Assembly: GCA_964016885.1 (NCBI GenBank)
Contig: OZ024743.1
Coordinates: 119,102,001-119,166,000 of the forward strand
DNA length: 64,000 nucleotides
Source of the DNA: Eledone cirrhosa
Taxonomy: Eukaryota
Direction: 5' to 3'
In this document: one piece after another, positions 3,381-61,178 of the stretch
How the letters are laid out: the number at the start of each line of letters is the position of its first letter
How positions within the stretch are numbered: the stretch's first letter is position 1
The notes under the pieces: model-generated
Databases searched by the model: none
Seen by the model: the letters and a program-made list of their open reading frames with translations, nothing else
What the model was told of the DNA's origin: nothing
Made by a program: the position numbers and the translations under genes

Positions 3381-3584
3381 GGAACGAGTAGGACCCCGAC
3401 GGCTGAGCTCAAGCCGTTTCGACGGCTAATTCTGGACTAAATTCTGGACAGAAATAGCCGTCGAAACGGCTTGAGCTCAGCCGTCGGGGTCCTACTCGTT
3501 CCCATTACCCACTCTACTACCCTAAGTATTGAGTACTTTGGTGCGTTATGGTCCATCTGGTTCCTTACCACATTTCCTTCGTTA
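3381..3584 (+). mobile_element. Fold-back hammerhead-associated element family A (Penelope-like pLTR remnant) in (TA)n
   Basis: Inverted arms about 3381-3434/3449-3502; GAAA-CGGC-TTGAGCTCA-GCCG-TC (hammerhead 3' half); unique tail to 3584; TA tracts on both sides. Confidence 0.8.
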
Positions 3585-3825
3585 TATATATACTTATATA
3601 TATATATATATGTCTATATATATATATATATATATATATATATATATATATATACTCACTGACTCTGTATATATATGTATATATATATATATATATGAAT
3701 ATAAGAACGTTTTAATTCCTAAAGACTAAATAAACTATAATGTGAACCCTTATATGACTGGTAATTTTGGTTTAATTTGCCACATAGGTGAATTCATGAT
3801 GCTTATATAAAATGGTTTCCTAACA

Positions 3826-4003
3826 GGGCCAGCAATTCTTTTTTTTTGGGGGGGGGGGGGGGGGGGCGTTATTGGTACTTTATTTTATCGACCCCGTAAG
3901 GATGAAAGGCAAAGCTAACCTTGGCGGGATTTAAACTCTGAACGTAAAGGTCTGTAATTCTATGCGGCGATTCAGGGTGTCCGATGCTCTACCGTTTTGC
4001 CAA
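3826..4003 (-). mobile_element. SINE family S, diverged
   Basis: Reverse complement of the SINE core (TTTTATCGACCCCGTAAGGATGAAAGGCAAAG). Confidence 0.85.
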
Positions 4004-4008
4004 AAGAA

Positions 4009-4137
4009 TAAAATCCAAAGATCACTCGATAAGGCTTGTGCGTATATATATATATATATATATATATATATATATATATATATGAATGTATGTATAGTAT
4101 ATTTGGCAATGTACCGTATGTTTAATTAAAAACATTT
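4009..4137 (-). mobile_element. (TA)n-associated element family H fragments
   Basis: 4009-4042 is the reverse complement of the tail CCTTATCGAGTGATCTTTGGATTTTA (cf. 22153-22198, 52004-52040); 4082-4137 matches about 22076-22132. Confidence 0.55.
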
Positions 4138-4615
4138 AGCAGACTAAACGCTATCAGTTTTAAAGTAGTGACTATGTCACTTACTTCTTTTCATCGAAAG
4201 AAGGGAGAGAAGCTGACAGTCTGTTTCACGCTGGTTGGCGTTCATGAGAGCCACGTACTCCCCTGCTTTCGCCGAAAATTATAGAAGCTGGATTCTTATA
4301 GAATTCTACCCGTAGAGCAAATATTTATTACTAGTACAGATGAAAATGTTAAGCAATGATTTTCTGCTTTCACCCTCAGCTTGCATTTTCATATGTAGCA
4401 ATGTCATATCTATAAACAGGTTTGCGGTCGAGTTCGTAGCAGTGGAGACCTCTAGGACCACTTCCTAACTCACTACCATCGGCAAGAAGTTAGCCACCCG
4501 CGCATCTCCCTCACCGTCCTCCGTGGAAAAGCCTTCTCTGTTCTGTTCACCGGGGCCGCGGGCGACCAGCGCATGGACCCACATTTGCTTACATTATGAC
4601 TGTATGGCGCTTGAG

Positions 4616-4790
4616 GGCGCTGGATTGGCAGTATCGGTAGAGAGTGGGACACCATGCTTTGCAAATTCTGCCGAGGTTACATCCTTACGGAGTCGATAAA
4701 ATAAAGTACCAGTCACACAATGGGGTCCATTTAATCGACTTTCCCTTTCCCCACAATTGCTGGCCTTGTGCCTATATATGAAACCATTAT
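4616..4790 (+). mobile_element. SINE family S long form with internal deletions
   Basis: Head and core present, plus the long-form segment GGGGTCCATTTAATCGACTTTCCC. Confidence 0.8.
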
Positions 4791-57685: not shown

Positions 57686-58264
57686 TGGTGGCTGCCAACT
57701 CGTTTTCGAGTACGGCCACTACATTATATCCATGTAGGAGAACCCCTACCGATGCGCTGAACGAATGTGACTTTTTAATCCAGCCAGCGACTTGAAAACT
57801 CTGGTACAAACACTACACTTGTGACAATTATTGACGCATAGTGCTGGGCCCATGGTACCATGTGACGACAAGTGCAGAGAGATCTCCAGATATAAAGAAA
57901 TGCCTGTGCCGTGAAGCTTTTATAGTGAGCAAAGGCCCTGCACAAAGCCAGTCCCACTCTCTTAACCAAGATGATATTTCCCAAAAAGAAGAACAAGTCA
58001 ACATCATTGGATACCATCAGGGTTGCTGGTGTTATATCAGAGTTTTCCTTCTCCTATAATTCTGCCTTGACAAAGGCTAAGGGGTCATCTCTCCCGGTGA
58101 TTTTGGATGACCATTGACTCTTAAGAGCTCCTTTGCCCTTTGTTTTTAGTCCTGCAGGATGTCCAAAGTCACCCTCCTCACCAAGAAACCTTGGTGGGGT
58201 TGCCAGTTTAGTCGCCAACGACCCGACCATGAGAGAGGTCAGGTCGTTGGCGACTAAACTTCCC
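57686..58264 (-). mobile_element. Non-coding RTE-like element, near full length, between (CATA)n tracts
   Basis: Inverse of 41082-41483 plus about 175 bp more of the 5' region; terminal hairpin 58205-58260. Confidence 0.75.
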
Positions 58265-59620
58265 ATACATACATACATACATACATACATACATACATAC
58301 ATACATACATACATACATACATACATACATACACACATACATACACACATACATGATGCATGCAAGCATACATACATGCATACATACATGCCTGCACACA
58401 TACATGCGTGCACATATATACATACATACAGGTAGTTATACTGACAGGCAGACAGCAGATAAATAACTAGAAGGATAGATAAATAGATACATGGATAGAT
58501 ATAGTGATAGATATAGATACATAGACAGACAGATAGAAAGATAGATAGATAGTATATATATATATATATATATATATATATATATATATATATATATATA
58601 TATATATATATATATATATATATATGTGTGTATATATATATGTATATATAGATGTATATGTATATGTATATATACATATACATATACATATACATATACA
58701 TATATATATACATATATATACATATATATATATATATATATATATATATATATATATATATATATATATATATATATGTATATGTATATATGTATATATA
58801 TATGTATATGTATATGTATATATATATATGCATATGCATATGTATATGTATATATATATGTATATATATATAAGTATATGCATATGTATATGTATATATA
58901 TATATATGTATGTATGTATCTCTCTCTCTCTCTCTCTCTCTCTATATATATATATATATATATATATATATATATATAGAGAGAGAGAGAGAGAGAGGGG
59001 GGGGAGAGATACATACATACATACATACAATGTTACAAATATTACGGGGAAAATAAAAGAGAAATATATAAAAAAAGAATGGCAGTCGTTGACAATAAAA
59101 AGATTTACATGTTTACACAAGCAAACCAATCGCAAAGCAAATAATCAAAGTAACCTAAGTCTACAATACACACAAAGTGGGCAAGAACGTTTGTTGGATA
59201 CTCTATTTACTGTAAAATCTTAACAAGCAAAGAAAGTAAACAGATTACAAACAAACCACTTGACCGGCTTAACCTTTTCATGTTTACTCTCACCACAGAG
59301 GTCGCTCGTTTTTGTTCATCTAAGTTACGTAAAAAAATATTGTATAGAATAAAATACAAAATGGCCGTCCTGTCAGTAGCGATAATTTAATGAAGATTTA
59401 AAAGGGACGACAGAGGTTTTTATTGAAATGTTTAGTGTAGTATATAAAATGTCATGAAGGTGTGAGTTTCATAAGTGAGTGAGCATGTGCGTGTGTGCTT
59501 GCTTTCTGTTGACTCTGTCTCGCACACACATTTTTCCCTGTTCTCCCATCTCTCTCTTTCACTATATATATGTACACACACTAACACACTCACACAAACA
59601 TATATATATATATATAACTA

Positions 59621-59666
59621 TCGAAACGGCCGGAGCTCAGCCGTCGGGGTCCTGACTCTTTTCCTA
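59621..59666 (+). mobile_element. Family A arm-only fragment
   Basis: TCGAAACGGCCGGAGCTCAGCCGTCGGGGTCCTGACTCTTTTCCTA then (TA)n. Confidence 0.75.
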
Positions 59667-59725
59667 TATATATATATATATATATATATAAAATAAAATA
59701 AAATAAAATAAAATATATATATATA

Positions 59726-59922
59726 GATGAGATTCTACAGGACTAGAACTGTTTCATTCTTTAGAAATCATCAGGAAGCCTGATAATTCCTGATGATTTC
59801 TAAAGAATCAAACAGTTCTAGTCCTGTAGAATCTCATCTATATTAACACTTTTATACTCTGCAATGTATTGAGTACCTTACTTACTGTGGTTACCTCCGA
59901 TTCAACCCGGAATAACGTAACG
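59726..59922 (+). mobile_element. Family B fold-back element in (TA)n
   Basis: Both arms share the TAAA stem II loop variant; the plus arm has GAAA>CAAA. Confidence 0.85.
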
Positions 59923-61044
59923 TATATATATATATATATATATATATATATATATATATATATATATATATATATATATATATATATATATACATTTATC
60001 CATGACCGGATATTTCCAAAAAGCGAATGAAACCTCATGGGGTAGAAACATAATTTCGGTATGTTTATGTACATTTTTTCTTCTAACTTTGATTTTGTAC
60101 ATAATTATGTATGGTTGGCTATATGTCTGATCAATTTCTACGGGCTATTAGAAATACTGGGTAAATCTTCTGTGGCTGTTGATCGCGGATAAAATAGCTA
60201 TCATTTATTTATCTATTTTAAACTTATAGCCTCGTTTAATTGATTTTTTTGTGTGGTTAATTATGCTGATTGAGAGGAGAAATACTGTATGTATTTTATC
60301 AAATGATTCTATGGACTTACTTTCTTATATATATATATATACATGTATATACATATGTAGATATATATATACATGTATATACATATGTAGATATATATAT
60401 ATATATGTAAAGCGAGAAAGAGAGTGGATATATATATTTATGTATAATTATGGCATCAAACCTTAATTCTGTTTTTATAATTATATATTTAACATTAATT
60501 AAGAATGCAGTGCTATTTCCTCTACGATGCTTGACCAGAATTGACCCTTACTATAATAATTTATACTCACCACGTGAGCAACGATAATTGATTAAAACTT
60601 ATCCGCACATTATATTAATTATGTTAAGAATGGTTTCCACGCAAATGTATATATGTATATATACATTCAACACACACACGCACGCACACACACACACATG
60701 TATAAATATATATGTATATATGTGTGTGTGTGTGTGTGTGTGTGTGTGTGTGTGTGTGTACGCATGCATACATGCATATAAATAAAACTATTGTGAGTGG
60801 GTCAGCTTGAGTGATGTGTTAAAGCATGGATTATCCACTGTCACTGCAAGCGATTGCATATACCGAAATGGATAAATATTTTTAAGTAATGCTTCATTTA
60901 CTTGTTTTTTCTTTACTTTTCAATCTTGCTGAATTTTAGACTGGATGTCAAAGAGTTTATTGAACACATTGAATACGGAATATATATGTGTTCGCATGTG
61001 TATTTCTATATGCATGTTAGTTTGTATATATACATATATATATA

Positions 61045-61178
61045 AAGAGTCAGGACCCCGAAGGCTGAGTTCCGGCCGTTTCGACAGCTATATGAAAACG
61101 TTTTACTCTACTACCCTGAGTATTGAGTATTCTGGTGCGTAATGGTCCACCTGGTATCTTACCACATCCTCTTTGTTA
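61045..61178 (+). mobile_element. Family A element, diverged
   Basis: Inverted hammerhead half, then tail ACTCTACTACCCTGAGTATTGAGTATTCTGGTGCG...GTTA, in TA. Confidence 0.75.

Follow-up and report, generated by a model that had tools for sequence, protein, structure and literature searches.

Short TA-flanked repeats in the Eledone cirrhosa genome: support for truncated insertions of the hammerhead-bearing pLTR end of Hydra-clade Penelope-like retroelements

Described Penelope-like systems and the window

The closest described system to the repeats reported here is the Hydra clade of Penelope-like elements (PLEs) with a C-terminal endonuclease (EN+), which includes Hydra-1_Obim of Octopus bimaculoides. 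According to PMC8557442, (TA)n targeting, hammerhead ribozymes and insertions made of an inverted copy plus a tail are known for this clade, with one octopus family. The origin of the inverted and tandem structures of PLEs is stated as open in PMC8557442 and PMC3846280. Poseidon of Anolis carolinensis (PAc) belongs to a different clade (PMC11167929). Its protein nicks and extends both target strands in vitro and starts at two internal sites which bound the tail; no primer-template homology was found, cleavage was dispensable in that system, and inverted copies were left unexplained.

We analyzed a window of 64,000 nt of E. cirrhosa DNA. An earlier note, made from the letters of this window, had listed 24 copies of seven repeat families (A-E, G and H), and the families, coordinates and TA flanks proved real (Table 1). 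Its claim of one layout holds for 13 of the 24 copies, which are palindromes with a tail (A 3381, 7163, 8754, 36825 with an 18-nt overlap, and 38700; B 39611, 52639 and 59726; C 6505 and 41640; D 9007; E 13640; G 39334), but not for the other 11. Five of these are two-armed (A 10172, A 61045, H 6172, H 51991, H 50668) and are not palindromes because their arms do not overlap; four carry forward sequence only (B 6320, B 14901, H 4009 and the H tail at 22151), and A 59621 and A 17864 are lone arms. The stretch 22045-22136 is part of another repeat. The data presented below support the view that the repeats of the window are short insertions of the hammerhead-bearing pLTR end of Hydra-clade PLEs.

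Table 1. Repeat copies in the window, with strand, structure and hammerhead features
Family	Position	Strand	Structure	Hammerhead
A	3381..3582	+	inverted arm 3381-3442; forward arm and tail 3449-3582	3' half
A	3511..3534	+	proximal bulged hairpin (RCUC-stem-UH-GAGY) within the tail	
H	4004..4034	-	degenerate tail fragment, forward-only	
H	6172..6251	-	tail-only forward arm (36 nt) and inverted arm (46 nt), no overlap	
B	6320..6436	+	sole arm, forward	
C	6505..6893	+	palindrome, 49-nt spacer, tail	cores 6709 (+), 6601 (-)
A	7163..7310	+	palindrome; tail with internal deletion	
A	8754..8948	+	palindrome and tail	
D	9007..9788	+	two arms: inverted 583 nt (9007-9589), forward 161 nt (9628-9788)	core 9107 (-)
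A	10110-10127	+	detached tail tip, apart from the 10172 copy	
A	10172..10265	-	tail-only forward arm (44 nt) and inverted arm, non-overlapping	
E	13640..14198	-	forward arm 13640-13864; inverted arm 14073-14198, identical to forward arm; between arms, SINE piece with its own inversion, 13908-14077	cores 13840 (-), 14097 (+)
B	14901..15035	+	forward arm alone, starting at the +1 edge	
A	17864..17887	+	single arm, stops at the proximal terminus (by eye only)	
H	22151..22198	+	tail fragment, forward-only	
A	36827..36970	-	forward arm starting near the predicted cleavage site; 18-nt overlap with the inverted arm	
A	38700..38830	+	palindrome and tail	
G	39337..39581	+	palindrome and tail, 3' part of a 498-nt non-coding unit	upstream of the copy's 5' end, hence outside it
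B	39611..39803	+	palindrome and tail	core 39676
C	41640..42088	+	near-perfect palindrome and tail; proximal hairpin 42008-42027; 3' end of a Hydra element with a 737-aa ORF	core 41902
H	50669..50745	+	inverted arm to +1, untemplated G; tail cut to about 5 nt (by eye)	
H	51991..52040	+	short inverted arm and tail-only forward arm	
B	52639..52826	+	palindrome and tail	cores 52699 (+), 52687 (-)
A	59621..59664	+	lone arm ending at the proximal terminus	
B	59726..59917	+	palindrome and tail	
A	61045..61176	+	inverted arm and tail-only forward arm, non-overlapping	

ORF linkage, hammerheads and family G

Elsewhere in the genome, six of the seven families (A-E and H) run into Hydra-clade Penelope-like ORFs; those of A and C are intact, and those of the other four are broken or incomplete. 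Family C has an intact 737-aa ORF flanked by the C repeat on either side, in family A, 3.54-kb tandems contain an intact 718-aa ORF, and B, D, E and H continue into ORF starts or come after ORF ends. The single ORF, with reverse transcriptase (RT) followed by a C-terminal GIY-YIG domain, is contiguous with the repeat. The domains were identified by the motifs YRDD and VY..C...Y[IV]G, by likeness to published Hydra proteins as judged by eye, and by Atlas feature matches to GIY-YIG/RVT_1 clusters; Pfam and PDB sequence searches with the element ORFs gave nothing meaningful. RW[K/R] was found in 4 of 4 rows spanning that region, DKG altered to DKT in 5 of 5, and the CxCX5C linker in 8 of 9 (one has X4). 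The CCHH motif is absent from the element ORFs, and CxxC and CxH stand near the C-terminus in rows reaching the ORF end. Three of the motif rows (L191, L288 and L407) are not tied to any window family. On sequence grounds the families belong to the named clade Hydra (PMC8557442). Linker, CCHH and domain order spoke against Neptune and Naiad, and both were rejected.

The families have in common with the Hydra clade, as PMC8557442 describes it, the single ORF with these motifs (RW[K/R], DKT, CxCX5C linker, no CCHH, terminal CxxC/CxH), a type I hammerhead close to the 3' end, insertion into (TA)n, and the inverted 5'-truncated copy plus tail. Such inverted copies occur here together with partial pLTR tandems (L031, L127, L128, L290, L291, L405 and L406). 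Unlike the published elements, which tend to be under 3 kb, the units of A (3.54 kb) and C (3.83 kb) exceed 3 kb because of long 3' UTRs. Tails are 60-100 nt here versus 30-40 nt, and at least six very high-copy families co-exist here versus "a small number" reported. The available part of that paper does not mention the twin hairpins, the +1 edge or the extra G described below.

The earlier note had read the repeats as PLE derivatives mobilized by an RT/GIY-YIG partner with a preference for (TA)n, and the contiguous RT and GIY-YIG ORFs of A-E and H bear this out. That none encodes protein is correct for the window copies but not for the genome, and "non-autonomous or severely truncated" describes two situations: G is non-autonomous, and the A-E and H copies are mostly independent truncated insertions of autonomous families, with differing junctions, not MITE-like units. 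The intact ORFs are very young; 29 family C endonuclease copies, chosen as top matches, differ by 0.44% on average. By extrapolation, these repeats occupy roughly 350,000 loci, or about 2% of the genome.

A descriptor for type I hammerheads gave 11 matches in the window, 10 of them in B, C, D and E, where the ribozymes had been claimed, and 0-1 match in each of 10 shuffled windows. The hammerhead 3' half claimed for family A is seen in the copy at 3381. A canonical core is present in B, C, D and E and, in long copies elsewhere in the genome, in G; long copies elsewhere carry variant cores in A (U3/A8 variant) and H (U4-to-A variant). All of these hammerheads, and their cleavage sites, are predicted folds, and two of the three folded (the window copies of C and B) are not the minimum-energy structure. 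No hammerhead was found among the 150 of 523 Rfam matches listed for the window, which are almost all microsatellite-driven miRNA, none at gathering score.

The exception to ORF linkage is family G, a 498-nt non-coding unit whose longest stop-free frame is 80 aa. Apparent G-ORF links at two loci (L292 and L293) were rejected, with a TA run or a separate insertion lying in between. In about 9 of 15 rows listed, the 3' end of G continues into the start of the unit itself, as partial tandems only. Similar to the non-LTR retrozymes (bioRxiv 10.64898/2026.07.22.740005), G is about 500 nt long and non-coding, with a type I hammerhead and head-to-tail junctions. It differs from them in being mostly dispersed and truncated, with inverted arms, and in bearing Hydra hairpins, which it keeps along with the hammerhead. 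The hairpins point to its likely mobilizer, and G is likely carried in trans by the Hydra enzyme.

Fixed 3' termini, bulged hairpins and the 5' edge

Every family has two peaks of 3' ends, which we call the proximal and distal termini; the stretch between them is the tail. In family A, 38 of 44 and 66 of 73 ends fall on the modal base of the two peaks. A bulged hairpin starts 7-12 nt past the terminus at 13 of 14 termini, a pattern expected by chance in about 1.5% of 8-nt windows. The distal hairpin of family B has no inner stem or bulge, and that of G was missed by the script. The distal hairpins of A and E, unseen at first, were predicted and then found. In the hairpin alignment, 95% of cells are paired, with 17 double changes, and covariation was 0.50, whereas shuffling gave 0.20 (0/500) and sliding no more than 0.22; because the instances were picked by the outer-stem pattern and two rows are misaligned, this test leans toward structure. 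The reversed-pattern controls are trivially zero and were given no weight. Of five hairpins folded, one differs from the minimum-energy structure. Inspection by eye shows the motif in four of six published Hydra consensi and a degenerate form of it in the remaining two.

The 5' ends cluster at an Inr-like site, with 310 ends within -6..+12 of +1 versus 24 in -80..-7. A TATA box lies at -29/-30 in A, B and E, and none was found at that spacing in C, D and H. The predicted +1 stands at -137 in A, at -133 in B and 29-30 nt past the TATA in E. An untemplated G precedes 35 of 53 ends at the edge versus 89 of 355 elsewhere (p 9e-9), and 28 of 39 versus 55 of 262 in A, B and E alone; C (1/1), D (2/6) and H (4/7) add thin support. 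These p-values are optimistic because +1 was chosen after viewing the end histogram and some of the G's; only the TATA boxes were identified after the +1 positions were fixed. In family A, 39 arms run 1-4 nt beyond the chosen +1, without the G. Divergence of its reference at the edge kept family G out of the +1 tests, and the 5' pile-up of G at -172 was rejected as reference divergence too. A G excess at offset -2 in family D was likewise rejected, as an overlap of the self-complementary centre.

Arm geometry and the origin of the palindromes

The preference for (TA)n claimed earlier is confirmed by copies not picked by their own query: of 162 3' ends, 122 contact a TA run, as do 72 of 100 ends of inverted arms, versus a 6.1% background. 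Copies touch 37 of 518 TA runs, 0 of 62 CA runs and 0 of 37 GA runs; TA runs outnumber copies. Of 89 insertions, 44 are symmetric to within 10 nt. A longer inverted arm occurs in 27, a longer forward arm in 3, and 18 have arms without overlap. Of the 27 longer inverted arms, 15 still end at +1. Microhomology was found at the junction in 44 insertions, and junctions vary from copy to copy. Five clean junctions carry the G on either arm with a 1-2 nt spacer.

In L1 twin priming, the second target strand primes internally and a 5' inversion results, and the strong-stop DNA of LTR elements is a short cDNA that runs off the RNA 5' end. In contrast to both, each of the two priming sites here has a fixed position marked by an RNA hairpin, both arms usually hold one and the same sequence, and neither a tRNA primer nor an integrase is involved. 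From the ORF linkage, the two fixed termini, the hairpins, the 5' edge, the extra G and the TA flanks, which are direct observations, we consider it fairly probable that two cDNAs are primed at fixed, hairpin-marked sites in a predicted 5' leader, extended until they run off at the capped 5' end, and joined head-to-head to give pLTR stubs. Pol II would start in the upstream pLTR, at the TATA/Inr in A, B and E or the Inr-like site in C, D and H, 130-320 nt ahead of the distal terminus. A protein dimer on the two hairpins would nick both strands of a (TA)n run, and reverse transcription would begin 7-12 nt 5' of each hairpin, aided by 0-5 nt of TA microhomology. Both cDNAs may reach the cap, which would be copied as C and appear as the extra G of the sense strand, and a template jump or end-joining would connect their ends. 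An early stop of the distal cDNA would leave non-overlapping arms, and rare jumps from the cap to the 3' copy of the RNA may, speculatively, produce ORF-bearing copies and extended pLTRs. Poseidon PAc (PMC11167929) is alike in its two internal RT starts bounding the tail, nicking and extension of both strands, AT-rich target and predicted dimer. PAc starts within the ORF, in an AC-rich stem-loop, whereas the sites of the window families precede both the ATG and a conserved bulged hairpin.

Within an insertion, the two arms disagree at 31 of 306 diagnostic sites, compared with 47% between insertions, a figure that single-molecule fold-back fits as well as twin priming. Head-to-head palindromes have been read in print as fold-back, in which a single distal-primed cDNA of the same Hydra elements would stall or run off, fold back (or self-prime on an antisense template, PMC3846280) and be copied to a fixed stop, with later deletions separating the arms. 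Arms agreeing at 90% of diagnostic sites, the 44 symmetric insertions and the 44 junctions with microhomology all suit such a course. Against it stands the asymmetry of 27 versus 3, with the inverted arm usually intact to +1. The inverted arm of D 9007 extends 480 nt further 5' than the forward arm and so holds sequence missing from it. Long ORF-bearing arms terminate at the proximal site, the G occurs on either arm with its short spacer, in the sense RNA the proximal end is followed by the hairpin, and the untemplated G at the Inr fits a sense, capped template. Fold-back, the mechanism implied by the earlier note, is probably wrong, although it keeps an appreciable chance; the inferred twin internal priming would contradict the published antisense self-priming idea.

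The nature of the 5' edge can also be questioned while twin internal priming is kept. An RT pause or RNA processing site would accommodate the lack of TATA at the spacing in C, D and H, the coincidence of the B edge with the 5' boundary of the hammerhead, and the A edge within loop II. The G excess and the TATA boxes at -29/-30 in three families favor a capped start instead, and the predicted cleavage sites do not coincide with the edges but follow 40-170 nt downstream, on which ground hammerhead cleavage was rejected as the source of the edges; we regard a pause or processing site as improbable. It is very improbable that the palindromes move as fixed MITE-like or retrozyme-like units. The short length of 157 of 162 unselected forward arms (<350 nt), and G as a real non-coding closed unit, are what fixed units would give, but junctions vary, short copies stop before the distal hairpin, and the inverted repeats are not terminal, as those of a MITE would be, because the tail lies outside the palindrome. 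Six families also extend into ORFs, and fixed units are largely refuted for A-E and H. Palindromes adjoining microsatellites are prone to error, yet an assembly or library artefact is scarcely credible given the family-specific fixed ends and the arm-to-arm mutations. Two independent short-read runs contain a 124-nt contig that spans the centre of a B palindrome; it represents another B copy, with 13 differences, and comes from one study.

Implications for Penelope-like elements

Earlier work had described Hydra elements together with (TA)n targeting, hammerheads and insertions of an inverted copy plus tail, and the mechanism looks to be the new part. Taken together, it is quite possible, if short of probable, that a duplicated telomerase-like RNA boundary hairpin, found from coral to sea cucumber to this genome, sets two RT starts in the mRNA leader. 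A dimer would then make two strong-stop cDNAs off the cap, abortive joining would give the PLE palindromes with tail (the 350,000 stubs), a cap-to-3'-end jump would give full copies, and the hairpins would let the retrozyme G hijack the enzyme. The ORFs are invisible to Pfam, and about 2% of the genome may pass as simple repeats or MITEs. The stubs supply genomic statistics for RT start and stop positions, and they name a cis-acting candidate hairpin and exact start sites amenable to mutation. Because PLE reverse transcriptases are sisters of telomerase, such a boundary hairpin would be of wider interest.

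Identity and abundance of the elements

An earlier note had interpreted the short TA-flanked repeats of the window (families A-E, G and H) as derivatives of Penelope-like elements (PLE) mobilised by an RT/GIY-YIG partner. Genome searches, in which the top 40 matches were scored and at most 30 loci fetched per family, extended every family beyond its window copy and bore this out for A-E and H, which are contiguous with Hydra-type ORFs. Family C repeats flank an intact 737-aa ORF, and the C endonuclease region was 100% identical in all of the best 150 of 59,540 first-look candidates. 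Family A forms head-to-tail arrays of a 3.54-kb unit whose 718-aa ORF is intact. In B, D, E and H the repeat is continuous with an ORF start or placed after an ORF end, the ORFs observed being broken or partial. The proteins of the other families are 39-57% identical to the C protein. The motifs RW[K/R], DKT, YRDD, CxCX5C and a terminal CxxC/CxH were found in these proteins, and CCHH is absent. Pfam and PDB sequence searches with the ORFs gave no match; Atlas features of the proteins pointed to GIY-YIG and RVT_1 clusters, with mostly low family shares. Section 11 of PMC8557442 gives the same motif set as the Hydra hallmarks and also describes hammerheads and (TA)n insertions, and its supplement includes one octopus family. 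Judged by the motif hallmarks of their predicted proteins, the elements are new members of this known clade. The part of PMC13282606 covered lists 31 active PLE families in Octopus vulgaris and mentions neither Hydra nor hammerheads. In family G the sequence past the 3' end is the upstream part of G itself, so that the unit measures 498 nt; its canonical hammerhead lies 260 nt upstream of the end, and every reading frame is at most 80 aa long. In these respects G resembles a retrozyme.

Self-BLAST of the window and inspection upheld the families and their TA flanks. The single layout ascribed to all copies held for 13 of the 24 listed (palindrome plus tail), but five have two non-overlapping arms, four are forward-only and two are lone arms; the copy at 17864 and the tail tip of the 50668 copy were classed by eye. 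One stretch lumped into H belongs to another repeat family (Table). Among copies unselected by their own query (from the window, 60 evenly spaced 10-kb stretches and bystanders in other loci), TA runs are touched by 122/162 3' ends and by 72/100 inverted-arm ends, vs. 6.1% of random positions. The 600-kb sample held 71 loci in 31 of its 60 stretches (2.0% of bases), about one third of the window's copy density. Extrapolation from this sample to the 3.0-Gb source genome gives roughly 350,000 loci. By inference, the repeat landscape looks octopus-like. Because the 3' region of family B holds a long (TG)/(TA) low-complexity tract common to copies (L252-L281), this family spreads microsatellite sequence.

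Table. Other repeats and individual loci (L numbers, loci elsewhere in the genome)
Feature	Location	Strand	Remarks
Broken non-LTR retrotransposon	window 46218-49250	-	RT (Pfam RVT_1, E 7e-19); C-terminal zinc-knuckle/nuclease-like region; end near (TAA)n run; presumably Dong/R4-like
SINE-like repeat, ~200 bp, abundant	window 645-1061, 13114-13310, 29275-29484, ~20 more places		80-95% identity between copies
469-bp inverted repeat	window 41082-41550, 57622-58088		96.8% identity, 16 kb apart
Repeat family lumped into H	window 4084-4376, 22045-22136; L021:380-1300, L023:100-800		relatives form large palindromes; in L021, a hammerhead-like core close to a TA run
E insertion	window 13855-14198		encloses 90%-identical partial E copy and SINE 3' piece with own short inversion, possibly a template switch onto SINE RNA
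Hammerhead-like cores outside the seven families	window 19773, 40208, 35517	+, -, -
Variant hammerhead core, H	L284:2820-2900		U4-to-A
Variant hammerhead core, A	L371		U3/A8 (a tolerated variant); position 7 variable
Further families recovered by hairpin alone	L346:7540-7660, L351:2550-2670		beside TA runs
A leader tandem, 257 nt	L364/L365		ORF start joined back to +1
Near full-length C ORFs, head-to-head	L127, L128		arms 3.5-4 kb
Hydra-type ORFs unlinked to window families	L191, L289, L292, L407
83-nt tandem array of G origin	L180

Hammerheads and the 5' edge

The hammerheads proposed for B, C, D and E were recovered by a type I descriptor: 10 of its 11 window matches lie in these families, and each of 10 shuffles gave 0-1. 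The predicted fold appears conserved across families despite unrelated stems. PMC4209133 and PMC11167929 describe the hammerheads of PLE as weak or protein-assisted. Family A stubs do hold only the 3' half, because +1 (the predicted 5' edge) of A falls within loop II.

The 5' ends of the arms halt at a family-specific edge; in A-E and H, 310 ends lie at -6 to +12 of an Inr-like A, compared with 24 over the preceding 74 nt. A, B and E have a TATA box 29-30 nt before +1; in C, D and H none is present at that distance. TATA and Inr are noted for PLE in PMC3846280, and a start site inside the pLTR is known (PMC2377424). An untemplated G precedes 35/53 arms ending at +1 vs. 89/355 other ends (36/54 and 24/38 at +1 in earlier passes with fewer loci), the +1 positions having been chosen post hoc and C, D and H contributing little; for A, B and E together the values are 28/39 vs. 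55/262. Thirty-nine family A arms overshoot +1 by 1-4 nt and lack the G. At five junctions the G is found on both arms, flanking a 1-2 nt spacer, and three more matches are imperfect. Extra G through cap copying is known for L1.

Two 3' termini with twin hairpins

In each family the 3' ends form two peaks 60-100 nt apart, of which the proximal one is almost always where the inverted arm stops. At 13/14 termini a hairpin of the form RCUC-[stem-loop]-UH-GAGY starts 7-12 nt past the last element-specific base (chance rate ~1.5% per 8-nt window). B has a reduced distal hairpin, in which the inner stem is missing and a U-A pair is swapped to A-U; that of G was recognised by eye only. The distal hairpins of A and E were searched for before being seen, and then found, with a pattern that included the outer stem and left inner stem and spacing free. 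For A there were 358 matches, and among the 100 listed all but ~4 keep stem, bulge and spacing; for E there were three. We aligned 15 instances (12 from A-E, G and H, one E relative and two new families, excluding B distal and G distal); 95.4% of cells are paired, with 17 double changes. Covariation was 0.50, compared with 0.20 after shuffling and no more than 0.22 after sliding, for instances selected by pattern and with two rows misaligned. In the published consensi consulted, the motif was seen by eye in Hydra-2_Amil, Hydra-2_Ajap, Hydra-1_Obim and, twice and ahead of the ATG, Hydra-1_Ajap; it is degenerate in Hydra-1_Amil and Hydra-1_Crog. The distal hairpin is present only where the repeat continues into the ORF start, suggesting that the RNA leader is likely the template of both arms.

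Origin of the palindromic stubs

We consider it probable that the stubs are made by twin internal priming with cap run-off, in which two cDNAs would be primed on the RNA leader and both would run off the cap. In vitro, Poseidon protein used two internal start sites, which bound the tail, and extended the two nicked strands from them (PMC11167929). The arms of 89 unselected two-arm insertions end at most 10 nt apart in 44 cases and 11-30 nt apart in 15; a longer inverted arm is seen in 27 and a longer forward arm in 3. For 107 query-selected insertions, a set biased to long forward arms, these four counts are 66, 18, 11 and 12. Non-overlapping arms occur in 18 of the unselected insertions. Of the long inverted arms, 15/27 stop at the 5' edge. 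Both arms do so in 32/43 symmetric insertions, and symmetry can therefore arise from two cDNAs reaching the same RNA end.

The arms of one insertion differ at 31/306 diagnostic sites vs. 47% between insertions, and at 1.5% of invariant sites. Family H is the sole exception, its arms being as discordant as unrelated copies (7/16 diagnostic sites). Usually, then, one template or one source locus lies behind both arms. This agreement fits fold-back or antisense self-priming, the published reading (PMC3846280), as well as it fits twin priming, and does not tell them apart; we regard fold-back or self-priming as unlikely. Still less likely is a 5' edge set by a pause other than the cap, and it is very improbable that the stubs are fixed MITE-like units. 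Hardly any weight is left for an artefact, since a B palindrome centre is crossed in independent contigs from another locus than the window's.

L1 twin priming, strong-stop DNA and R2-type template jumps are known processes. The twin hairpins, +1 edge and extra G are not described in the literature searched, largely other than subscription papers and Repbase reports, and did not turn up in term searches of the two closest papers; the supplementary figures of PMC11167929 may bear on the hairpin. Twin internal priming with cap run-off would extend the Poseidon two-site result (PMC11167929) and the known pLTR start site (PMC2377424) to these Hydra-clade stubs.
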